DNA of 64,000 nucleotides from an uncultured Anaerolineales bacterium (GTDB lineage Bacteria; Chloroflexota; Anaerolineae; Anaerolineales; UBA6663). The position numbers and the translations under genes were made by a program. The notes beneath the pieces are model-generated. The model was not told the DNA's origin. It did no database searches and worked only from the letters and a program-made list of their open reading frames with translations. Each line of letters starts with the position of its first letter. Position 1 is the stretch's first letter. The DNA lies in assembly GCA_964608265.1 (NCBI GenBank), contig CAZSNP010000019.1:120-64119 (forward strand), read 5' to 3'. Shown here in pieces: positions 28,488 to 64,000 of the stretch.

Positions 28488-28902
28488 CGCCAGACTCGGG
28501 CGCGGAGGGTTGCTCCACGCGCTCGACCTCGCCGTGATAGTTCAGCACGATGCGAAAGCCCATCATCCCCATGAAGGCGCGCGCCTGCTCGGGCAGCCCC
28601 TGGGCGATGAGGTGATCGAACTGGGCGTCGAGGTTGTTCAGCGACGAATCAATCGCCGCCTTGGTGAACAGGTCTTCCTGCCCCATCATCTTCATCACGC
28701 CTTCGCTCACCGCGTCGCGGTTTTCGGTGATCTGCCCGCCGAGGTGGCGGAGCACCTGCCGGTCCACGGCCTCGGCATCGATGTGAAACCTGAAGCCGTT
28801 ATCCTCGACGACGTATTGCGCCGCGCCGCCGACCAGCGTCACGTTGACCGCCCGGCCGTCCGGGTCGGAGACCAGACCTTCGAAAAGTGCGCGGGTGCTC
28901 AT
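28474..28902 (-). CDS. hypothetical cytoplasmic protein
   Basis: 142 aa from ATG 28902 (TAATG overlap with the LD-transpeptidase stop). Good codon bias. No family recognised. Confidence 0.6.
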   Translation of the reverse strand: MSTRALFEGLVSDPDGRAVNVTLVGGAAQYVVEDNGFRFHIDAEAVDRQVLRHLGGQITENRDAVSEGVMKMMGQEDLFTKAAIDSSLNNLDAQFDHLIAQGLPEQARAFMGMMGFRIVLNYHGEVERVEQPSAPESGDGGE

Positions 28903-29915
28903 TAGGTGATGAGGACGGGCGTGCCCTTGGCGTCCACAAACTGCTTGTCCGCCGGCACCGTCGGCAGCGTCCAGCGATAGACCCAGTGCGCGACATCGCT
29001 GGGCACGTTGACGCAACCGTGGCTGCGCGGCCGGCCGAAATCGTTGTGCCAGTATGTGCCGTGGATGGCCGTGCCCCACCAGTGAAAGTACGTGACCCAC
29101 GGCACTCCGGGCAGATCGAAGAAATCCGCCGCGGCCCCGTCGTCACCGGCCATGTGGCGCGAGGCCCGTTTGCTGATCACCGTCCACTCGCCGCGCGGCG
29201 TGCCGTACACGGTCTCGCCGTTTTCTTTGCGCAGCGGTATCCCGGTGGAGCACTTCGACTCCAGCATGAGCGTGCTGCCCTGATAGCATTTCAACGTCTG
29301 CGCTTCGAGGCTGATCTCGATGCGTTTATCGGTGACGGCGGGGGAAAGCGGCTCGAATGCCTCGGGCGGGACGCGGCGCAGGTGCTCGCCGGGCACCCAA
29401 TGATAGGTGCGCGTGCGGTCGCCGAGGATGCCATACCAGATCTTCCCGTCATCATCGAGCGCCGTCTTCATCACCCAATGGGTGGTGCCGTGATAAAACT
29501 TGTAATCGCCGCGGAAGCCCGGCCCCGGCGCGACGCGGCTCTGCGTCACCGGCACGCTCACCTCGGCCACGAAACCGTCCCTGGGCAGATGGCGCGTCGG
29601 CGTCTGTAATTCGTAGCGCACCAACTGCACGGGCGCGGAGTGCACGAAGCCGCGCCGCACCCGCCACCAGCGTTTGTTGATGGCGTGCGGGTCTTCGGCC
29701 TCCGCCTCGCCATAGATATTGAAGACCGTATCCGCGCCGAGGAAGTTGAGGGTTTTGGATTTGAAGTTGGGCCGCTCGTAAATGTACAATCCCAGCACTG
29801 CCCGGCCCAGCGCCAGCACCTCGCGCGGGGCTTCGGCGGGCGGCAACGGCGGCAGGAACAATCCGCCCGCGGCCAAACCCAGGGTTCTCAGGAAGTCACG
29901 TCGTGATAACGGCAT
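28902..29915 (-). CDS. L,D-transpeptidase (YkuD family), Tat-exported
   Basis: Tat motif MPLSRRDFLRTLG. Catalytic motif HGTYWHNDFGRPRSHGCVNV. Extended -10 TGGTATAAT (29925-29933, minus strand) lies 9 nt before the ATG. Confidence 0.85.
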   Translation of the reverse strand: MPLSRRDFLRTLGLAAGGLFLPPLPPAEAPREVLALGRAVLGLYIYERPNFKSKTLNFLGADTVFNIYGEAEAEDPHAINKRWWRVRRGFVHSAPVQLVRYELQTPTRHLPRDGFVAEVSVPVTQSRVAPGPGFRGDYKFYHGTTHWVMKTALDDDGKIWYGILGDRTRTYHWVPGEHLRRVPPEAFEPLSPAVTDKRIEISLEAQTLKCYQGSTLMLESKCSTGIPLRKENGETVYGTPRGEWTVISKRASRHMAGDDGAAADFFDLPGVPWVTYFHWWGTAIHGTYWHNDFGRPRSHGCVNVPSDVAHWVYRWTLPTVPADKQFVDAKGTPVLIT

Positions 29916-31125
29916 GCTGAGACGATTATACCAACGGCTTTTTCTCGCGCTATCCCTTCTCATCTCCGCTCAATCTTCACCGGCGGCAGCTCAGTCGGGC
30001 GACTACGGCGATTGGCGCCTCCCCCTGCCGGCCGGCGAGTGGACGATTTCGCGCGGGCCGTGCGGCGCGGAGACGCCGTACGATCATCCGTGTGGTTACT
30101 ACGAGGATGATTGCGCCCTCGATCTGGTGCCCCGCGATGGCGGCGATATCACCGGCACGCCGGTGCTCGCGGCGCACGCTGGCGTCATCGCCTACGTTGG
30201 CCGGCGCAGCGATGCCGGCATCGGCGTCATGGTCGAGCACGCCGATGGCCGGGTGAGCGCGGTCTTCCACCTTTCGCGCGCGGGGGTGATGGTGGGGCAA
30301 GCGGTGCAACGCGGCGACCTGCTCGGCGAGGCGGGCGGCACCGGCACCAGCCGCCCGCACCTCCACTTTCATGTGCAGAAGAACATCGTTGAACGGGAGT
30401 GTCTGTGGCCGGGCGGTATTGACGGGCAGGATTTTCGAGGCGCGCTGGTCGTCTCGCGCAACCTGTCGGCGGCGCAACTCAACCTGCGGCTGGCGCAGCG
30501 CCAGCTCGATGCCCGGCCGCCGCTCGTGGTCTCGCGCCAACTCGAGTCGGTGCCGCTGCCGATATCGATTCCGCCGGAGGCGGTGGTGCAGGTCCCGGTT
30601 GTGCTCACCGGGGCGCTCAGCCAGACGACCATCCTGCGCAGTTCTGCCGTGTGGGGGCCAAACCATCGCTCCGTCGCGAGCACCGTCCTCACGCGCACGG
30701 CCGACGGGCCGCTGTTTCGCATCCCGGTGCAAGCCAACACGCTGCGAAGGTGGGCCTTGCACAGTGACCCGGCGCTGGCAAACGAAGTATTCCACTTCAC
30801 GTTTGAGGTCGGTGCACTGCGTTCAACCGAGATTCCGGTGGGCATCGTCCTCCAGAATCCGGAGTTCGTCAGCCCGACGAGCTACAGCGCGTGGGGCTCG
30901 GCGCCGCAATTGTGCTGGCGCCTCGGCGGCGCGGTGAAGCAGCCGGTGCGCTTTCGCGTGCGCGTGGTCGGCCCGCAGCCGGCGGATAGCGGCTGGCAAG
31001 CGGCGACGTGCTGGCAGCCGCCTCAACTTCGGAAAGGGACGTACTTCTGGAAGGTCTTTGTCCGCGACGGTGATGGCTTTGTCAACCGCACCCATCAGCG
31101 CCCGCAGGCCTTCGTAATTCGGTGA
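29914..31125 (+). CDS. secreted M23-family metallopeptidase
   Basis: Signal peptide MLRRLYQRLFLALSLLISAQS. M23 motifs HADGRVSAVFHLS and SRPHLHFHVQ. Confidence 0.8.
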   Translation: MLRRLYQRLFLALSLLISAQSSPAAAQSGDYGDWRLPLPAGEWTISRGPCGAETPYDHPCGYYEDDCALDLVPRDGGDITGTPVLAAHAGVIAYVGRRSDAGIGVMVEHADGRVSAVFHLSRAGVMVGQAVQRGDLLGEAGGTGTSRPHLHFHVQKNIVERECLWPGGIDGQDFRGALVVSRNLSAAQLNLRLAQRQLDARPPLVVSRQLESVPLPISIPPEAVVQVPVVLTGALSQTTILRSSAVWGPNHRSVASTVLTRTADGPLFRIPVQANTLRRWALHSDPALANEVFHFTFEVGALRSTEIPVGIVLQNPEFVSPTSYSAWGSAPQLCWRLGGAVKQPVRFRVRVVGPQPADSGWQAATCWQPPQLRKGTYFWKVFVRDGDGFVNRTHQRPQAFVIR

Positions 31126-35001: not shown

Positions 35002-37593
35002 ATGGAGCTATTGGAACGCGAAGGGCCGTTGCGGGAGCTGGAGGCGGCGCTGGCCGAGGCCGCGAACGGCGCGGGCCGCGTGGCGCTGGTCAGCGGCGAG
35101 GCCGGCATCGGCAAGACGGCGCTCATCGAACGCTTCGCGCGCGAGCACCGGACGGATGTGCGCGTGCTGTGGGGTGCGTGCGACGCGCTCTTCACCCCGC
35201 GCCCGCTTGGCCCGCTGTACGACATCGCCGCCCAAACCGGCGGGGCACTGGCCGCCGCGCTCGAGGCGGACGCCAACCGCAACACTATCTTCTCCGCCGT
35301 GCTGGCCGAACTGAATCGCCAGCCGACGCTCGTCGTCTTCGAGGACGTGCATTGGGCGGACGAGGCCACGCTCGATCTGTTGCGCTTCCTTGGCCGGCGC
35401 ATCGCCCGCACCCGCGCGCTGCTCGTGCTGACGTATCGCGACGACGAGCTTGGCCCGCGCCACCCGCTGCGCACCGTGTTGGGGGATTTGACCGCGCCGG
35501 AGGTGGTGCGCCGCATCGCGCTCGCGCCACTGAGCGAGGCCGCCGCGCGCGCCCTCGTCGGCGAGCGGCGACTGGATGTGGCCGCGCTCCACCGCCAGAC
35601 CGGCGGCAATCCATTTTTCATCTCGGAAGTTCTGGAATCCGGTGGGGGCGGCATTCCGGCCACCGTGCGCGACGCGGTGCTGGCGCGCGCGGGCCGGCTT
35701 TCGGAGTCGGCGCAGGCGGTGTTGCGGGCTGCCGCCGTCATCGGCCCGCGCATCGAGCCGTGGCTGCTGGCGCACCTCACCGGGGCCGAGGCCGAGGCCG
35801 GCGAGGAATGTCTGTCGAGCGGCATGCTGATCGTGCACGGCGAGGCGCTGGCCTTTCGCCACGAACTGGCGTGGCAGACCGTGCTCGAAACCATTTCGCC
35901 GCCGCAGAAGCTCTCGCTGCACCGCATGGCCCTCGATGCGCTCAGGGCGCTGCCCGCCACGCGCCACGACCTTTCGCGCCTGGCCCACCACGCCGAGGCC
36001 GCCGGTGATGCCGAGGCCACATTGGAATACGCCCCCGCCGCCGCGCGCAGAGCCGCCGCGGCCGGCGCGCATCGCGAAGCCAAGACGCTGTACGAGTTGG
36101 CCCTGCGCAACGCCGCCCTGCTTCCCGCCGAAGCGCACGCCGAACTGCTCGATGCGTACGCCGAGGAGTGCAACTCGGTTGATCAGCGCGCCGAGGGGTT
36201 GGCGGCGCGGCAGAAAGCCCTGCATCTGTGGCGCGAGTTGGGGCGACCACTGCGGGCCGGTGAGACCCTCGCGCACACGGCCATCCTGTACAACGGGTTG
36301 GGCAATACGACAGCCGCCGAGAAGGCCTGTGACGAGGCCGTCGCACTGCTCGAGGCGCAGCCGCCGGGCCGGGCGCTGGCCTATGCGTATCGAATCCGCG
36401 CCGGGCTGCTCATGCTCAATCAGCGGAACGCCGAGGCCATCGAGTGGGGCGAACGCGCCATCGCCCTGGCCAGCGAATTTGGCGACGCCGACCTGGTGCT
36501 GGCGACCCAGGTGCCGATGAGCTCGGCGTGGCTGCAATTGGATTATGAGCGCGGGCGACAAATGTTGACCAGCGTCATCCGTCAGGCGCGCGAAACCGGT
36601 CGCATCGTGGTGGCCGCGAATGCTTACGCCAACCTGAGTTCGGCGTCGAGCGAGCTATATCGCTTCGATGTGGCCGAGCAGGTCGCGCGCGAGGGATTGA
36701 GTTACTCGGCCGAGCATGGGCACGATCGTTTCCGGCTGTACATGCTGGCCTGGCAGGCGATGACGCACCTGCGGCTTGGCCGGTGGGATGAGGCGATTGA
36801 CGCCGCCAGCCTCGTGCTGCAACCGCCGGGCGTCTCGGCCACCAGCCGGGTCACCGCGCTGGCCGCGCTCGGCTACGTGCGTGTGCGGCGCGGCGACTCC
36901 ATTGCGCCGATTGTGCTGGACGAGGCGCTGGAGTTGTTGCGCGATATGGGCAGCCTGCACCGCGTGGCGCTGGTGCGCGGCGCGCGGGCCGAGGCCGCCT
37001 GGCTGGCTGGCGACCGCGCGCGGACCATCGAGGAAGCGCGGGCCGCATTCGACCTCGCCCTGAGCGCGCGCCACCCGTGGTTCGCCGGCGAGATGGCGTA
37101 CTGGCTGTGGCGCGCGGGTGAAGACGTCGTGGCAGAGCAGTGGATGGCGAAGCCCTACGCGCTGCACATCACCGGCGACTGGCGCGGCGCGGCAGAGGAA
37201 TGGCGGCGGCTGGGCTGCCCGTATGAAGAGGCCCGTGCGCTTGCAGAGGGTGACGCTGAAGCGCAGACCGCCGCGCTCGCCATCTTCGAGAAATTGAGCG
37301 CGCGGCCCGCCGCCGAGGCGCTGCGCGAAAAGATGCGGTCCGCCGGGCTAAAGACGCCGCGTGGCCCTCGCCCCGCCACCCGCGAGAATCCCTTCGGCCT
37401 CACCGCCCGCCAGCTCGATATCCTCGCCCTGCTCGCCGCGGGCCTCACTAACGCCGAGATCGCCGCGCGGCTGCACCTCTCCCCCAAGACCGTAGACCAT
37501 CATGTAAGCGCGGTGCTCGCCAAGCTCGAGGTGGCCTCGCGCGAGGCCGCCGCTGACGTGGCCCGGCAACATCAGCTGTTCCCAAAATCCTGA
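35002..37593 (+). CDS. large ATP-binding LuxR-family regulator (LAL/MalT-like)
   Basis: Walker A GEAGIGKT, central TPR-like helical repeats, and a C-terminal LuxR HTH (LTARQLDILALLAAGLTNAEIAARLHLSPKTVDHHVSAVLAKL). TAGAAT lies 8 nt before the ATG. Confidence 0.85.
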   Translation: MELLEREGPLRELEAALAEAANGAGRVALVSGEAGIGKTALIERFAREHRTDVRVLWGACDALFTPRPLGPLYDIAAQTGGALAAALEADANRNTIFSAVLAELNRQPTLVVFEDVHWADEATLDLLRFLGRRIARTRALLVLTYRDDELGPRHPLRTVLGDLTAPEVVRRIALAPLSEAAARALVGERRLDVAALHRQTGGNPFFISEVLESGGGGIPATVRDAVLARAGRLSESAQAVLRAAAVIGPRIEPWLLAHLTGAEAEAGEECLSSGMLIVHGEALAFRHELAWQTVLETISPPQKLSLHRMALDALRALPATRHDLSRLAHHAEAAGDAEATLEYAPAAARRAAAAGAHREAKTLYELALRNAALLPAEAHAELLDAYAEECNSVDQRAEGLAARQKALHLWRELGRPLRAGETLAHTAILYNGLGNTTAAEKACDEAVALLEAQPPGRALAYAYRIRAGLLMLNQRNAEAIEWGERAIALASEFGDADLVLATQVPMSSAWLQLDYERGRQMLTSVIRQARETGRIVVAANAYANLSSASSELYRFDVAEQVAREGLSYSAEHGHDRFRLYMLAWQAMTHLRLGRWDEAIDAASLVLQPPGVSATSRVTALAALGYVRVRRGDSIAPIVLDEALELLRDMGSLHRVALVRGARAEAAWLAGDRARTIEEARAAFDLALSARHPWFAGEMAYWLWRAGEDVVAEQWMAKPYALHITGDWRGAAEEWRRLGCPYEEARALAEGDAEAQTAALAIFEKLSARPAAEALREKMRSAGLKTPRGPRPATRENPFGLTARQLDILALLAAGLTNAEIAARLHLSPKTVDHHVSAVLAKLEVASREAAADVARQHQLFPKS

Positions 37594-38162: not shown

Positions 38163-38208
38163 CCCTCGAGTGCGACTCACCGTACGCTCTCATCCCATGG
38201 AGTTTCCG

Positions 38209-38379
38209 ATGTCCCTTTCAAATATCGTCGAGATCGGTCTGAGCCTGTTGACCCTTGGGGCAGCATTGGGCCTGTGGTTGTACGCCGCCCGCCATAGCGA
38301 GCCGCGCGATGTGATGTTGGTGATCGGCAGCACGCTCGCGCCTTCGGGCCGTCGCACCCGGCGCGAGCGGGAGTATTGA
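38209..38379 (+). CDS. small single-pass membrane protein
   Basis: 56 aa. GGAG lies 6 nt before the ATG. TM helix [22 protein letters not shown]. The stop is 1 nt before the next gene. Confidence 0.4.
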
Positions 38380-38380
38380 G

Positions 38381-40300
38381 ATGCAGCGCCTGCTCGCCAA
38401 CGCCCTCGTTCGCCTCAGCCTCGCCGCCGCGCTGCTCGCCGGCGTGGCGTGGGCGGTGACACCCGTCCCGACCGCCCGCGCCGCCACCATCACCGTCACG
38501 ACCACGCAGGACGAGAACAACAACGACGGCGACTGTTCGCTGCGCGAGGCCATCCTCGCGGCCGAAGCCGACACGGCGGTGGATGCCTGTACGGCGGGCA
38601 GCGGCGCAGACACGATTGCCCTGGCGAGCAACGCGACTTACGCGCTGACGCTCAGCGTGGCCGCGGCCGATGTCGGCGCTACCGGCCTGCCGACGATCAC
38701 CGGCGCCGTCATCCTCCGGGGCAACGGCTCGACCATCCGGCGCGACAGCGCCGCCGCCTTCCGCATCTTGCGCATCGCCAGCGGCGGCAGCCTGACTCTC
38801 GACGAAGTCACGATCCGGGACGGCCTGGCCGAGAACACCAGCAGCAGTGGCCGGGGCGGCGGCATTTACAACCAGGGCACGTTGACGCTGACCAACAACA
38901 GCGCTGTCCGAGGCAACAGTATCGTGATCAATGGCAACAGCGCCAGCCCCCAGGCCGGCTACGGTGGCGGAGTCTACAACTTAGGGACAGTCACCATCAC
39001 CGCGAGCACCGTTGCCAATAACACCATTAACGTCACCAACACCGGCACAGGCGCCGCCCTCGGCTTCGGCGGTGGCCTCCACCATTCTGGTCCCAGCCTG
39101 ACTATCACCGAGGGCGTCGTCGGCAACAACAGCGTGACGACCCTCGCCACCGGCGGCGGCGCAAACAACTCAGGCGGTGGCGGCCTCTACGCCGCAGGTT
39201 CGACGGTGACGACTATTACGGACAGTGCGATCCGCAACAACCAAGCCAGCGCGCCAAGCGGCGGCAGCGGCGGCGGCCTCTTTTTGGTGAGCGCCACCCT
39301 CAATCTAATCAGTAGCACTGTCAACGACAACACGGTCAGCGGTAGCAACGCGGCGTCTGGGGCCACGGCTGGGGGAGGGATGACTCTCAATGTGAGCACC
39401 ACCGCCACAATCGTCAACAGCACCATCAGCGGCAATAGCGCGACCGGCTCGTTCAGCAACTTGGGCGGGGGGATCAACAACGGCGGCGCTTTGGAGATCA
39501 TCCAGAGCACGATCTCCGATAACACTGCGGGGAGCGGCGGCGGATTGCGTGACTCGAGCGGCGGCACGGCGACCCTCCTCGGCACGATCATCGCCGGCAA
39601 TCTGGCCGGCGGCTCGCTCACCGGCGCCACTGCTGACTGTGATTTTGGCTCTGGCCTCAACACCAGCAACAACAACCTCACCGGAATCGGGACCGGTTGT
39701 ACGCTGACCGGGACGGGCAACCGCACCGTCGCGCCGGCCTCGGTCACCACCACGGTGCTCGGCCCCTTGGGCGACAATGGCGGCCCGACCCGCACTCACG
39801 CGCTCAGGCTCGCCACGGGCAACCCGGCGGTTGATGCTGCCGACAACGCGATCTGTGCGGCGGCGGTGGTTGGCAACGTGGACCAACGCGGCGAGGCCCG
39901 GCCCTTCGATGGCGACGGCAACGGCGCGGCCACGTGCGACATCGGTGCGTATGAATTGCGCACGACCTTGCCGACCGCGACGCCGACCGCAACGACCCCG
40001 CCCTTCGTGCCGACCAACACGCCGTCGGCCACGGCCTCGCCGACGCGCACCAGCACGCCGACCCTCACGCCAACCGCGACGCCCACGCGCAACTGTACGC
40101 CCTCGGCGGATAACCCACCCTGCACGGCCACGCCGACCGGCACGCTCTCCGCGACGCCCACCGCGACGGCGACCCACACGGCCACGCGCACACCCACCGC
40201 TACCCCGTCGCCGACGGGCACGTTCATCATCCCGCCGCCCACCGTGCCGCCCGCCGCCTGTTCCACTCACTGCGTGTATCTGCCCATCATCCTTCGCTAA
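38381..40300 (+). CDS. secreted right-handed beta-helix protein (choice-of-anchor-Q-like N-terminal motif) with Thr/Pro linker and YLPIILR C-terminus
   Basis: Signal peptide. [21 protein letters not shown] motif. Many GGG(I/L)(Y/H)N beta-helix turns. A TP-rich linker. Terminal ...[13 protein letters not shown]. Confidence 0.8.
39950..40260 (+). repeat. Thr/Pro/Ala-rich low-complexity coding repeat (linker)
   Basis: [11 protein letters not shown]...[11 protein letters not shown]...[21 protein letters not shown], with ACGCC/ACCCC-rich DNA. Confidence 0.8.
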
Positions 40301-40347
40301 TCGGTTCGTTGCCGACAACAACCCGACCCACTCACCTGGAGTTCACC

Positions 40348-41016
40348 ATGTTGCGCAATCCTTTCGACCAGATTGAAGACCCGACCCAAAAGAAGCTGCT
40401 GCAATTCCGCGTCGTCCTGGCCGGGGCCATCATCGGCGGCGTGCTGTTGTGCAGCCTCCTCATCCTGGGCGGCCTGGCGCTGCAGGGCGCAACGCAGGCG
40501 CCGACAAAAGCCACCCAACAAGCGTCGTTCGACTCGGTGAAGCCGCTCAAGGAATTGTGCGCGGGTGGGGCCGGCAATGCTGCCGCGGCCGGCTACGCGC
40601 CCGGCAGCGGCCCGCACCGCCTGGTCGTGTTTCGCTCCAACATCGCCGGCTCGACCGACCTTTCCGCTTTCTACATCCGCACCGAGGACTATCCCGAAGC
40701 CTGGCGCGCCGCCGTGGTCGAGGAGGCCGCGCTGGTGGCGTGCGTCAGCGCCAACTCGTACATCGTCGAGGAATGCGCCTACACGCTGGAGGGCAATCAG
40801 GCCGCGACCTTGCAGCGCGTCCAGCTCGCCGCCACGATCAATCTGTACGCGGCGCGCACCGGCGCGCTGGTCGGCCAGACCGAGTTGATCGGTGCGACGC
40901 CGCGCGCCTGCCAGGATACGGAGCAATTCAGCGGGGGCCTGCTCACCGCCACGGTCACCGGCGAGGCCGTGCCGCCGGAGGCCATTGCGGAGTGGCTGAG
41001 CGAGTTCGTGCAGTAA
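40348..41016 (+). CDS. single-pass membrane protein with extracytoplasmic Cys-containing domain
   Basis: GGAG RBS. TM helix VVLAGAIIGGVLLCSLLILGGLAL. No family recognised. Confidence 0.65.
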   Translation: MLRNPFDQIEDPTQKKLLQFRVVLAGAIIGGVLLCSLLILGGLALQGATQAPTKATQQASFDSVKPLKELCAGGAGNAAAAGYAPGSGPHRLVVFRSNIAGSTDLSAFYIRTEDYPEAWRAAVVEEAALVACVSANSYIVEECAYTLEGNQAATLQRVQLAATINLYAARTGALVGQTELIGATPRACQDTEQFSGGLLTATVTGEAVPPEAIAEWLSEFVQ

Positions 41017-41058
41017 CGGCTGAGGTTCGTCAGCCGATCGTTGAAAAGGAGATTCACA

Positions 41059-42399
41059 ATGGCAAAAGTTACCTGGGAAATCACCGGCCGTATCCTGCTG
41101 GAAGAGAATGAGGTCAATGGCAGCGGCCAGACCATGACCCGTTCGCTGTCGAACGTCGAGGTCGAAGTCAGCGGCTCCAATTTCGGTGCGTACGACTCGT
41201 GGGGGACGGTGCGCACGAACTCGGACGGCTACTTTACCCTGCGCAAGGAGAAGGATCAGAGCAAGCGCAAGATCAAGGTCAAAGTCCGCTTCGCCGACAG
41301 CGAACTGGAGATCAACACCGGCGCACTGGCCAACGTCACTGACTTCATCAGCCCGGCCATCGAGGTCTTCGAGCACGCCAACGAGGTCGAAGGCCCAAAC
41401 ATTAACATCGGCACGCGCGCCTTCAAGGCCGGGGCGAGCGGCGAGCTGGGCGACCGCGACAACCGCCGCCGCGCCATCGCCTGGTACGTGTGCAAGAAGC
41501 TGATCAATACCTTTCAGGACAAAGACCCCTACTTCGACTTCAAGGGCAAGGTTAAGGTCATCTACCCCGCCAATGTGGTCAGCGGCCTGTGTTACGCCAA
41601 CGGCGTGACGCGCTCGGTTTACATGCACACAACCTCCAGCAAAGACTTGTGGGATGTGCAGGTGCTGATCCACGAGTTCATGCACCTGTGGAACTACGAC
41701 CACAATCACGGCACGGCCAACTGGCTTGGCGCGCTGTTCTGCCCGCCCGACCTGAGCACCCACAGCCAGGCCGAGCGCCGGCCCATCGCCTTTCATGAAG
41801 GCTTTGCCGAATATGCAGGCTGGGCGTTGTTGCACGAGATGTGGGGCGACGAGCCTGACAGCACCCGCACGCGGCCTCTGCCCTACACCCGTTACGCTTT
41901 CGTCCACGATCTGCACCTGGATACGGTGGATGAAGTCGAGCAAAACGATATCGGCGTCTACCGTGCATTGTGCCTGCTCACCAGCCGCGCCCTCTACGCC
42001 CGTCGCTTCGGCACGAAAAACACCCGGCTGGACTCCGATCCTCACCCGCAGAAAGTGGAAACCGCCGGCCTCGACTGCCCGCAGAATCCAAAGCTGACGA
42101 TCTGGGACGTGTTGAAGGTCTTTCAGGCCAACCCATCGAAGGGCTATTCCACCGAGTGGCAGGTGGGCAGCAACGACTACGGCGTGCGCCGCTTCTTCGA
42201 GCGCGCTGCCGACGTGCTCGACGCGCTGGACGAGTCGACGAAAGACCTGATGCTCAGCCTGATTGACCCGAACAGCACCGAGGAGCCGCAGTCGCGCTGT
42301 GAAAAAGTCACCCGGCCCGAGATCGCCGGATCGAAGCCGATCGGAAGCGGGCAAATCGCAGCGGCGGCGCAGTCGGCGCTGAACAAGCCACGACCATGA
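41059..42399 (+). CDS. HExxH protein, putative gluzincin-type metallopeptidase with N-terminal beta-sandwich
   Basis: AAGGAG lies 7 nt before ATG 41059. LIHEFMHLWNYDH plus a downstream FHEGFAEYAG (HExxH...E arrangement). No signal peptide. Visibly lower G+C than neighbours. Confidence 0.6.
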   Translation: MAKVTWEITGRILLEENEVNGSGQTMTRSLSNVEVEVSGSNFGAYDSWGTVRTNSDGYFTLRKEKDQSKRKIKVKVRFADSELEINTGALANVTDFISPAIEVFEHANEVEGPNINIGTRAFKAGASGELGDRDNRRRAIAWYVCKKLINTFQDKDPYFDFKGKVKVIYPANVVSGLCYANGVTRSVYMHTTSSKDLWDVQVLIHEFMHLWNYDHNHGTANWLGALFCPPDLSTHSQAERRPIAFHEGFAEYAGWALLHEMWGDEPDSTRTRPLPYTRYAFVHDLHLDTVDEVEQNDIGVYRALCLLTSRALYARRFGTKNTRLDSDPHPQKVETAGLDCPQNPKLTIWDVLKVFQANPSKGYSTEWQVGSNDYGVRRFFERAADVLDALDESTKDLMLSLIDPNSTEEPQSRCEKVTRPEIAGSKPIGSGQIAAAAQSALNKPRP

Positions 42400-44021
42400 A
42401 TACACGACTTTCTACGCTCTGGCGCGTCCTGGTCGTGTTCAGCCTGGCCGTGCTCAGCGCGCAACCGCGGCCCGCCTCCGCCGCGACGGTCGTGCGCAAA
42501 CTCAGCGGCGTCATGCCGGCCCCGGGCGATGTTGTGTTCGGGCTGCGCGGCCCGGCCATCAGCCCGGATGGGCAACACGTGGTGTACGTGGCCGATGCGG
42601 TCACCGACGGCGCCGAAGAATTGTGGGTCGCGCCCATCACCGGCGCGACGCCGCCGCTGCGCCTGAGCGGCCTGCTGCCCGCCGGCGCACGCGTCGAGCA
42701 GTTCCGGATCGCGCCCAACAGCCAGCGCGTGGTGTACACCGCCGCGCAGGATAGTGCCGGGGTCGTAGAGCTGTACAGCGTGCCCGTGACCGGCGGCGCC
42801 ATCACCAAGCTCAACCCGCCGCTGGTGGCGAACGGGGATGTGGAGCGCTTCGAAATCAGCCCGGACGGCAACTGGGTCGTGTACCTGGCGGATCAGATCA
42901 CCGACAACCGCGCCGAGTTGTTCTCCGTGCCCATCGCCGGCGGCGCGGCCGTCAAACTCAACGGCGCGCTGGCAGTCGGCGGCAATATCTACGAGTACCT
43001 CATCAGCCCGGACAGCCAGCGGGTGCTCTACCGGGCCGATCAGGCCGCGAACAGTCGTTTCGAGTTGTTCAGCGTGCCCATCGCCGGCGGCGGTTTCACC
43101 CGGCTCAACAACGTGCTTCCGATCGGCGGGGCGGTCATCTCGACGCTGACCATCACACCGGACAGCAGCCAGGTGGTGTACCTGGCCACGGCCACCATTT
43201 CCACAGTCGTGGAACTGTATAGCAGCTCGATCATCACTTCGACGCAGGTCAAGCTCAACTCGCCGCTGGTCGCGGGGCGAGAGGTCTCGAACGCCCGCCT
43301 CAGCCCGGATGGCAGCCGAGTCGTGTATGTGGCCGATCAGGCCGCCGACGACATGTTCGAGATGTACAGCGTGCCGGTCGGCGGCGGCGCGGTCGTCAAG
43401 CTCAACGGCGCGCTGGTGGCGGGGGGCGATGTGTTCCCCAACGACTTCGTCATCAGCCCGGACAGCAGCCGGGTGGTGTACATCGCCGATCAACAAACGG
43501 ATGAAATGTACGAGCTTTACAGCGTGCCCCTCAGTGGCGGCGCGGCCGTCAAGCTCAACGCGCCGCTGGCCCCCGGCCGCGACGTGGATGCCTTCGGCAC
43601 GCTCATCACCCCGGACGGCCTGCACGTCGTCTTCCGCGCCGACCAGGACACGGACGAGGTCTTCGACCTCTACCGTGTGCCCCTCGCCGGCGGCGCCAAC
43701 CTCAGGCTGAACGGGACGCTGACCGCCGGCGGGTATGTATCCCAGTTCCTCCCCACGCCGGACAGCAGCCGGCTGGTATACGCCGCCTTTCAGAACTCGG
43801 TGGATGTGCTGGAGGTCTTCAGCGTTCCGCTGGCAGGCGGCCCGGTCACGCCAGTCAGCGGCCCGCTGGTGAATGGCGGCTCGGTGATCAGCGACTTCCT
43901 CATCAGCCCCAGCGGCCAGCGGGTCGTGTACGTCGCCGACGGAGAGGTGAATGAAGTCAATGAGCTGTACGCCAGCGCCGAGGAAGCCGTCCGGCTATAC
44001 CTGCCGTTGATCATCCGCTGA
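42396..44021 (+). CDS. secreted beta-propeller repeat protein (TolB/PD40-like blades) ending in YLPLIIR
   Basis: Signal peptide. 9-10 repeats of about 49 aa (ELYSVP..GG...KLN......V..F.ISPD...VVY.AD). Terminal ...EEAVRLYLPLIIR*. ATGA overlap with the upstream gene. Confidence 0.8.
   Translation: MNTRLSTLWRVLVVFSLAVLSAQPRPASAATVVRKLSGVMPAPGDVVFGLRGPAISPDGQHVVYVADAVTDGAEELWVAPITGATPPLRLSGLLPAGARVEQFRIAPNSQRVVYTAAQDSAGVVELYSVPVTGGAITKLNPPLVANGDVERFEISPDGNWVVYLADQITDNRAELFSVPIAGGAAVKLNGALAVGGNIYEYLISPDSQRVLYRADQAANSRFELFSVPIAGGGFTRLNNVLPIGGAVISTLTITPDSSQVVYLATATISTVVELYSSSIITSTQVKLNSPLVAGREVSNARLSPDGSRVVYVADQAADDMFEMYSVPVGGGAVVKLNGALVAGGDVFPNDFVISPDSSRVVYIADQQTDEMYELYSVPLSGGAAVKLNAPLAPGRDVDAFGTLITPDGLHVVFRADQDTDEVFDLYRVPLAGGANLRLNGTLTAGGYVSQFLPTPDSSRLVYAAFQNSVDVLEVFSVPLAGGPVTPVSGPLVNGGSVISDFLISPSGQRVVYVADGEVNEVNELYASAEEAVRLYLPLIIR
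42570..43990 (+). repeat. tandem coding repeats of about 147-150 bp (propeller blades)
   Basis: Repeat units are visible in the translated sequence. DNA identity between units is only partial. Confidence 0.8.
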
Positions 44022-63148: not shown

Positions 63149-63982
63149 TCACGTGAGCGGTATGGGCGTGATGACGAGCACAAACAGAATCAGCGCGCCG
63201 ATGGCGAGCACGCGCCGGGCCGGGTCGAGTTCGGTGATCTGGTCGAGCGGCTCGGCGTGCGTGCGCCCGAGGAAGAAGATCAGCGCCGCCCACAGCCACC
63301 AGCCGTTCCAAAAGAAGCCCAGCCCGACGAGGACGGCGATGATGACGGGCACCAGCCGCGTGGCCCGTCGCCCGAGCAGGACGTAGAGCGCGTGGCCGCC
63401 GTCGAGCTGGCCGGCCGGGATCAAGTTCAGGCCAGTGACGAGCAGACCCGCCCACCCCGCCCAGGCCACTTGATTGAGAAAGACATCCGTGCCGCCGTTG
63501 GGGAACGGGAAGCCGAGCATGTAAAACCGCAGCATGTACAGCCAGCCCGGCAAATCGCCGTAACCGATGGGTTCGGGCAACCAGCGCCCATAGACTATGA
63601 ATTTCGCCAGCACGTAAAGGATCGAGTTGCCCTCCAGCCCGCTGAGCTGGTCGTAGGGGATTTGTTGCAGCGGCGCGGAGGTGTACAGGCCATAGAGCAA
63701 GATCGGCACGGCGACGACGAAACCGGCCAGCGGCCCGGCGATGCCGACATCGAGCAGCGCCCGGCGATTGGTGGGCGGGGCCTTGAGTTGGATGAAGGCG
63801 CCGAACGTCCCGAACAATCCGAAAGGAAACGGGATGAAGTAGGGGAGGGTCACGGCGACGCGGTGATAGCGCGCCATCAAGTAATGGCCAAACTCATGGG
63901 CCAGTAGAATCGCGAGCAGGCTGACTGCAAACGGCCAGCCCGCCATCATCACGCGCAGCCAGTCGAGGGCCGTTTCTGGCAC
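63149..63982 (-). CDS. M50-family site-2 protease-like membrane metalloprotease
   Basis: HEFGH within the first TM region. Polytopic. The start is close to the window edge, so the N-terminus is uncertain. Confidence 0.75.
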   Translation of the reverse strand: MPETALDWLRVMMAGWPFAVSLLAILLAHEFGHYLMARYHRVAVTLPYFIPFPFGLFGTFGAFIQLKAPPTNRRALLDVGIAGPLAGFVVAVPILLYGLYTSAPLQQIPYDQLSGLEGNSILYVLAKFIVYGRWLPEPIGYGDLPGWLYMLRFYMLGFPFPNGGTDVFLNQVAWAGWAGLLVTGLNLIPAGQLDGGHALYVLLGRRATRLVPVIIAVLVGLGFFWNGWWLWAALIFFLGRTHAEPLDQITELDPARRVLAIGALILFVLVITPIPLT

Positions 63983-64000
63983 CGGCCCGTCGTAGCCGTA

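Follow-up and report, generated by a model that had tools for sequence, protein, structure and literature searches.

Two exported proteins in an Anaerolineales gene cluster end in YLP-box tails, a putative sorting motif of Chloroflexota surface-type proteins

Can an unusually short C-terminal tail act as a sorting signal for exported proteins? This question is raised by a five-gene cluster on a contig of an uncultured Anaerolineales bacterium of the phylum Chloroflexota (assembly GCA_964608265.1, contig CAZSNP010000019.1, positions 120 to 64,119 of the forward strand), a stretch of 64,000 nucleotides that was analysed as a whole and is called the window hereafter. Two large exported proteins of the cluster, a beta-helix protein and a beta-propeller, end in closely similar hydrophobic octapeptides, and a first-pass annotation of the window had proposed that the tail may be an undescribed, compact sorting, anchoring or cleavage tag, with candidates for its cognate machinery encoded next to it. 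Every characterised prokaryotic C-terminal sorting signal consists of a motif, a transmembrane (TM) helix and a basic cluster (PMC11980579). We asked what class the two tails belong to, which proteins carry them, and how such a tail might be read.

Two exported proteins share a C-terminal octapeptide

The two proteins are encoded on the plus strand at 38381-40300 and 42396-44021, and the translated N-termini of both read as signal peptides with Ala-x-Ala sites. The first is a secreted beta-helix protein of 639 residues, in which a CSLREA region and a choice-of-anchor Q domain are followed by a Pro/Thr-rich linker of about 105 residues (39959-40273) that leads to the tail VYLPIILR (40274-40297), with a TAA stop codon directly after it. 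It scores 38.9 bits with TIGR04214 (CSLREA_Nterm) and 58 bits with NF041518 (choice-of-anchor Q), both above the cutoff of 25 bits, in agreement with the earlier remark that its GDCSLREAI-type beta-helix resembles the choice-of-anchor class. The second is a secreted PD40-type beta-propeller of 541 residues (PD40, 1.5e-21), the C-terminus of which reads ...EEAVRLYLPLIIR and closes with LYLPLIIR (43995-44018) directly before a TGA stop codon.

A six-frame scan of the whole window with LP[LIVM][LIVM][LIVMA][RK] returned these two sites only, both abutting a stop codon, which confirmed that two large exported proteins have a C-terminal tail in common. In simulated windows with first-order base composition matched to the real window, YLP[LIVM]3R occurred 0.007 times per window and never before a stop. 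When the 639-residue protein was compared with the 541-residue protein by BLASTP, the best local alignment was the octapeptide and no match reached significance, so that the tail is indeed the only likeness of note between them. The codons from Tyr to Arg are TAT CTG CCC ATC ATC CTT CGC in the beta-helix gene and TAC CTG CCG TTG ATC ATC CGC in the propeller gene, and this difference indicates that the tail is conserved at the protein level. Chance or composition as the source of the tails was ruled out by the low frequency of simulated matches, with none at a stop, and by the differing codons; a DNA-level repeat or a terminator was ruled out by the synonymous and conservative variation.

The AlphaFold model of the propeller is confident overall (predicted local distance difference test, pLDDT, 91.9), with a helix at residues 7-21 that precedes the fold, consistent with a signal peptide. 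Residues 533-541, which contain the tail, have a pLDDT below 50 and no secondary structure in this model. Because the tail is disordered in an otherwise confident model, the box is an autonomous, flexible appendage and lies outside the folded domain. The possibility that it forms a final strand of the fold, such as one that closes the propeller, was rejected on the same grounds, and also because many unrelated architectures carry the tail and because the Pro/Thr-rich linker separates the beta-helix from its own tail. Orthologues of both the beta-helix protein and the propeller retain the tail; the best named homologues come from Ardenticatenaceae, Promineifilum, Anaerolineae and Herpetosiphonaceae.

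The tails belong to a catalogued motif class

The tail is not new to sequence curators. NCBIfam (release 20.0) has two curated models of exactly such a tail under the description "YLP-box putative sorting motif-containing protein". NF050076 ("sort_motif_YLP") spans 11 positions and has a cutoff of 15 bits, NF053834 ("ultrashort_CTERM") spans 10 positions with a cutoff of 10 bits, and both align to the final 8-10 residues; the suggestion that the tail is undescribed thus had to be given up. When isolated tails were scanned at a permissive threshold, the propeller tail scored 15.9-17.2 bits with NF050076 and 12.6-14.4 bits with NF053834, above both cutoffs, and of 100 independently collected tails 86 matched the former model and 81 the latter. 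The full-length propeller reached 12.3 bits with NF050076, under the cutoff of 15, and the full-length beta-helix protein gave no match. As the full-length window proteins stay under the curated cutoffs, automated annotation would probably leave both of them unlabelled. We are highly confident that both tails belong to the YLP-box class; they are a rediscovery of a motif known to curators as putative, to which two members are added. Searches of the accessible literature with the peptide strings, with YLP-box and with Chloroflexota sorting found no paper on the motif, and a preprint on myxosortase does not mention Chloroflexi.

The YLP-box is confined almost wholly to Chloroflexota

One genome per species (185,579 species) was scanned with a DNA pattern for the tail and its stop codon, weighted to codons rich in guanine and cytosine (GC). 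At least 120 loci were obtained. Among the matches listed, to which all figures in this paragraph refer, 111 of 120 are labelled as Chloroflexota (about 104 assemblies) and fall in Anaerolineae, Caldilineaceae, Ardenticatenia/Promineifilaceae, Thermoflexales, Limnocylindria and Chloroflexia, the last represented by Roseiflexus, Chloroflexaceae, Herpetosiphonaceae and Viridilinea. The carriers include the cultured strain Thermanaerothrix daxensis GNS-1 (L077) and metagenome-assembled genomes labelled Anaerolinea. Several assemblies have at least two to four tail loci each, and the YLP-box probably occurs in many copies per genome. Most matches end long open reading frames (ORFs; up to about 2600 residues) with signal-peptide-like starts. 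Matches outside Chloroflexota mostly end ORFs of 3-37 residues and are consistent with chance. The YLP-box is therefore confined almost wholly to Chloroflexota; as the pattern prefers GC-rich codons, nothing can be concluded from the lack of matches in low-GC classes, Dehalococcoidia among them.

Two alphaproteobacterial contigs (L089 and L096) encode related peptides of 34-37 residues, ...AVFAVAGTLGVLYLPLVMR and ...LTVTATIGLLYLPLILR, with the same heptad at the end. They probably represent an unrelated family of small membrane peptides that matches by chance.

Consensus and position of the box

Across 198 distinct tails the class consensus is [VIL]-Y-L-P-[LVI]-[VI]-[LVMI]-R, and both VYLPIILR and LYLPLIIR fit it. 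A longer form reads [Y/H]-R-[V/I/L]-Y-L-P-[L/V]-[V/I]-[L/V/M/I]-R followed by 0-5 residues; Tyr or His is preferred at -3 and Arg at -2, and the first residue after the closing Arg is most often Asn. Given the preference for Arg upstream of the box, its core can be described as a hydrophobic heptad between arginines. In about 9% of the collected tails, Pro, Thr and Ser account for half or more of the 25 residues before the box. The motif is real and under selection at the protein level.

A metagenome scan with the genome-scan pattern minus the stop codon gave 122 matches, 84 of which (about 70%) lie no more than five residues from a stop. Extensions of 0, 1, 2, 3, 4 and 5 residues after the Arg were found in 19, 8, 32, 15, 9 and 1 distinct tails, respectively. 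About 20 matches lie in unrelated cytoplasmic or membrane families, such as an acyltransferase-like NHLAVMDSFYLPLVVRRR segment. In homologue sets that had not been picked by their tail, the strict motif is terminal in 42 cases and internal in two (23 and none for propeller homologues, 19 and two for CSLREA homologues). The placement of the tail at the extreme C-terminus thus holds for both window proteins, but not for the wider class, in which 0-5 trailing residues are common and a few boxes are internal.

Besides the internal boxes weighed below, boxes at module junctions were seen in L150, L030, L066, L091, P0306 and P0344, the last being a tandem of two CSLREA units with the box between its halves. 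N-Y-P-P or a Pro/Thr linker often comes directly after an internal box, and at such junctions the box could be a processing site or merely a retained linker. A different arrangement occurs in L130 (minus strand), where the box lies at residue 1168 of an open frame of 1226 codons; the roughly 50 residues after it contain a TM helix and RR (...VYLPLVMRNSSGG...YPLWLAILLLGGMGLYLRRTGNL), a classical anchor-like tail.

Cargo proteins and alternative C-terminal signals

Signal-peptide-like N-termini were found in 91 of 110 complete tail-bearing ORFs versus 327 of 1818 control ORFs (18%) from the same loci, as called for the whole class by a heuristic rather than by SignalP. The tail recurs on hundreds of unrelated signal-peptide proteins, and 74 randomly sampled tail proteins match 72 Pfam families typical of surface proteins, among them PKD, Beta_helix, DUF11, CarboxypepD_reg, FG-GAP, LRR, Calx-beta, BNR and Peptidase_S8.

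In the place of the box, homologues of the two window proteins from other phyla carry established sorting signals or other endings. Among the best 120 propeller homologues, 29 have a YLP-like tail at the C-terminus; at the same position, judged by sequence pattern, 9 have a PEP-CTERM-like signal, 11 a CxxCDGFExGD ending and 4 a Cys-rich tail, and at least two further homologues are annotated by Pfam with the C-terminal domain of the type IX secretion system (T9SS; PF18962). CSLREA homologues include 26 with a YLP-like ending, one with a PEP-CTERM-like signal and five with a TM helix and basic tail. The idea of a compact sorting or anchoring tag is thus strengthened by the recurrence of the box on signal-peptide proteins, by its alternation with known signals, by the disorder of the tail and by its label as a putative sorting motif among NCBIfam curators, although the extreme C-terminus is not required for it.

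The CxxCDGFExGD and the Cys-rich endings both recur among the propeller homologues and occupy the position of a sorting signal as well. The eleven homologues of the first kind (including P0019, P0021, P0060, P0069, P0076, P0094, P0106 and P0116) end in C[LV][LF]CDGFExGDxxRW, and the four of the second (P0005, P0063, P0064 and P0118) in C-x-P-[IV]-...-[IV]-x-[IV][IV]-C-[LFI]. A recurrent gene pair was also observed in Chloroflexota-type loci, where a large secreted family adjoins a secreted protein of about 95 residues with a YLP-box tail (L020, L045, L064, L078, L122, L135, L157, L172, L186, L192, L195, L205, L207, L215 and L230). The large family (31 ORFs in 25 loci) has no YLP box and an N-terminal '...AFTYQGQL...' region in common; the small partner follows the pattern GGYxLxW...GGGYSLxGTxGQPDAG...YTLxGGFWGG.

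Comparison with known sorting systems

Like the signals of the LPXTG/sortase, PEP-CTERM/exosortase, PGF-CTERM/archaeosortase, GlyGly-CTERM/rhombosortase and MYXO-CTERM/myxosortase systems, the YLP-box is found on signal-peptide proteins of the surface type. Both kinds of signal are lineage-restricted, are swapped for one another in homologous proteins, and occasionally have a Pro/Thr-rich linker upstream, as in the window beta-helix protein. In contrast to these tripartite signals, the YLP-box comprises about seven hydrophobic residues, too few for a membrane-spanning helix, and has a single Arg in place of a basic cluster; in the window tails, three hydrophobic residues follow the Pro and the next residue, Arg, is the end of the protein. 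Moreover, whereas the tripartite signals have a cognate enzyme, none was found for the YLP-box in the window or among 240 collected YLP loci. In an all-against-all clustering of the 4256 ORFs from these loci, the only neighbours that recurred were regulators, ATP-binding cassette (ABC) ATPases, ClpB and a single family of secreted proteins; proteases and multi-pass membrane enzymes did not recur. Neither these neighbours nor the scanned window proteins included a recognisable sortase, exosortase, rhomboid or CPBP-type protein.

The T9SS C-terminal domain takes the same C-terminal position as the YLP-box in some propeller homologues. It is a folded domain of about 80 residues that is read by a diderm secretion machine, whereas the YLP-box is an unstructured tail of eight residues; Chloroflexota are commonly held to have no classical outer membrane. 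Short C-terminal tags without a TM segment are known from the eukaryotic CAAX box and from the C-terminal Lys of Braun lipoprotein, which is linked to peptidoglycan by L,D-transpeptidases. In these cases a handful of residues at the C-terminus is enough to direct modification or attachment, but the YLP-box differs from both in having no Cys and no terminal Lys, and in tolerating trailing residues.

How the YLP-box might be read

The explanation that we favour, with moderate confidence, is that the two tails are YLP-boxes in the sense of an ultrashort, near-C-terminal linear motif that marks Sec-exported Chloroflexota proteins of the surface type and is read by a dedicated factor. That the class as a whole is a true sorting or retention tag seems to us probable to a similar degree. 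After Sec export and removal of the signal peptide, the exposed, Arg-flanked hydrophobic heptad would be recognised by a dedicated reader, presumably encoded elsewhere in the genome, and this reader would hold the protein at the cell surface, either by sortase-like cleavage and transfer at the box or by non-covalent docking of the box in a groove. As trailing residues and internal copies are tolerated, recognition as a linear motif is favoured; as there is neither a TM helix nor a basic cluster, the reading step must differ from that of sortase-type enzymes, which act on membrane-held substrates. We lean slightly towards enzymatic recognition over docking, while the data do not separate a covalent from a non-covalent outcome.

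It is tempting to speculate further that the YLP-box is a Chloroflexota-specific substrate tag of a sorting system yet to be found, one that dispenses with a TM anchor and employs a dedicated extracytoplasmic enzyme or receptor as its reader, although we offer this extension only tentatively. If it is true, a tail of eight residues would attach surface proteins to the envelope, probably dozens of them in each cell, and the mechanism would set the system apart as a new class from those of sortase, exosortase, rhombosortase and myxosortase. No shorter surface-sorting signal would then be known in prokaryotes, and a reader of a new kind would be required. The present analysis adds the range of the motif within Chloroflexota, its position rules, its cargo spectrum, its internal copies and the exclusion of the obvious neighbours as reader, and these descriptive data would aid the design of a search for the reader.

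Several observations weigh against a dedicated sorting tag. The beta-helix tail, CVYLPIILR, matched neither NF050076 nor NF053834 when the threshold was relaxed to E<=10. Some boxes, a minority, are genuinely internal and lie between two extracellular modules (L228, L144, L164, L169, L216 and L221), which is at odds with a signal confined to the C-terminus. With a box that lacks the TM helix and basic cluster, a sortase-like mechanism has no obvious means of substrate retention. No candidate enzyme or receptor recurs near YLP genes in the 240 loci, and the literature searches found no experiment on sorting, cleavage or anchoring by the YLP-box.

The closest rival is non-covalent docking without cleavage, in which the heptad would bind a conserved surface receptor or a component of the S-layer or sheath, by strand addition or in a groove, and the protein would remain attached for as long as its tail is bound; we consider it possible, though clearly less likely than the favoured explanation. 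The 0-5 trailing residues and the occasional internal boxes are more in keeping with a linear motif for binding than with a C-terminal signal that is cleaved, the box has no TM helix to present it to a membrane enzyme, and the propeller model shows a flexible, exposed tail. However, the 240 loci yielded no receptor or conserved neighbour, and the affinity to be gained from eight residues is limited. Docking is, moreover, a sub-variant of the dedicated-factor explanation, from which it is inseparable by sequence.

A second rival looks for the machinery within the cluster itself, where the HExxH protein would cleave or mature the YLP tails of the adjacent gene products, perhaps in partnership with the membrane protein of 222 residues (40348-41016, plus strand). 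The HExxH protein has 446 residues (41059-42399, plus strand) and was confirmed to lack a signal peptide. Its HExxH motif reads HEFMH, and H205, E206, H209 and H215 are invariant in 52 homologues. The protein has no Pfam or NCBIfam match. In its AlphaFold model (pLDDT 89.8) an N-terminal transthyretin-like sandwich is combined with a zinc-peptidase-like domain of M4-like type; Foldseek searches gave matches to transthyretin-like proteins and distant ones to ProA, vibriolysin and LasB (TM-score about 0.5, 10-15% identity, E 1e-3 to 1e-4). It may be regarded as a putative metalloprotease, with a catalytic-looking domain distantly similar to peptidases of the thermolysin family. Local processing would thus be compatible with a zinc-peptidase-like fold that has an invariant HExxH and a third His, with the overlap of 4 bp between the HExxH gene and the propeller gene, and with two related metagenome contigs (L252 and L254) in which the HExxH gene again lies beside genes for a beta-helix protein and a propeller with YLP-boxes. 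This linkage may reflect either a local, lineage-specific functional tie or retained synteny, the latter among close relatives.

Against local processing, the HExxH protein has neither a signal peptide nor a TM segment and therefore probably resides in another compartment than the exported tails. In tblastn searches, none of the 60-residue peptide that opens the cluster, the 222-residue membrane protein and the HExxH protein had a homologue in the 120 YLP loci of the genome scan, and the ORF clustering placed no relative of the 222-residue or HExxH proteins beside YLP genes in the 240 loci. Being absent from these loci, the three proteins are not the general reader. The HExxH family is also small, with about 100 clusters (103 among 5.8 billion proteins) to set against a motif that occurs in at least about 100 Chloroflexota species. 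Its homologues include one of 81% identity on a contig labelled Vicinamibacterales (Acidobacteria; L247, GCA_036274155.1, DASUGH010000094.1) and others of 61% identity on contigs labelled Pyrinomonadaceae, which suggests horizontal transfer or a mis-binned contig; none of these Acidobacteria-labelled homologues (61-81% identity) has YLP tails among its neighbours. The first-pass candidates for cognate machinery, the membrane protein and/or the HExxH protein, were accordingly abandoned for the class as a whole. We regard local processing of the neighbouring tails as improbable, and processing of the tag by the local HExxH protein as having little chance of being correct.

Finally, a function outside sorting, as a degron for unexported precursors, a brake on the last Sec step or a strand for matrix assembly, is very improbable: the box is a short, very hydrophobic segment between arginines, no machinery was found in the 240 loci and internal junction copies could be points of assembly or cleavage, but bona fide sorting signals stand at the same place in homologues elsewhere, the range of cargo matches that of surface proteins that are sorted, and the data point specifically to neither degradation nor self-assembly. 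A passive anchor at the membrane interface was set aside on general energetic grounds.

Gene cluster and neighbouring genes

The ORF listing of the window places five genes in the same direction at 38197-44021, separated in turn by 1, 47 and 42 bp, with the overlap of 4 bp between the last two. Five co-directional, tightly spaced ORFs had been proposed at first pass, and they were found at or very near the positions given there. Near-identical contigs from four Joint Genome Institute (JGI) metagenomes and two Logan sequencing-run assemblies have these genes too, with identical gene calls, and the exact sequence of the 639-residue protein is on record from an NCBI contig of 71,187 bp. Most simply, the five genes form an island for exported proteins under common regulation, and two of the products are tagged.

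The first gene encodes a single-pass membrane peptide of 60 residues (38197-38379, plus strand) with no function assigned and no family match in Pfam or NCBIfam. Its presence had been recognised before, with a start at 38209; the public gene calls on the near-identical contigs use 38197, and we adopt this start here. The 222-residue membrane protein has a single N-terminal TM segment and a C-terminal domain of about 160 residues, which is placed outside the cell by assumption from that segment. It has no Pfam or NCBIfam match, and its homologues form 362 representative clusters at E<=1e-3. The same domain also ends transmembrane pentapeptide-repeat proteins; of eight larger proteins with this ending that were scanned (P0387, P0388, P0391, P0395, P0409, P0458, P0463 and P0501), seven have long pentapeptide-repeat regions.

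Two further envelope enzymes are encoded on the minus strand of the window, a YkuD-family L,D-transpeptidase (28902-29963), the N-terminus of which has a twin-arginine-like RRDF motif, and a truncated M50 site-2 protease (63149-64000). Both belong to common families, with no link to the tail shown, and YkuD L,D-transpeptidases are common housekeeping enzymes.

Upstream of the cluster, at 35002-37593 (plus strand), lies a gene for a transcription regulator that combines a STAND-type ATPase domain (AAA_16, 2.3e-21) with a GerE/LuxR domain (GerE, 3.4e-17); it is a possible regulator of the cluster. Ten other loci likewise have a large regulator of the STAND/BTAD type close to a YLP-box gene. Regulators of the STAND type, in which AAA_16, NB-ARC or BTAD is joined to GerE or TPR, stand beside YLP-box genes in L069, L183, L232, L223, L040 and L189, and they also adjoin HExxH homologues in L251 and L252.

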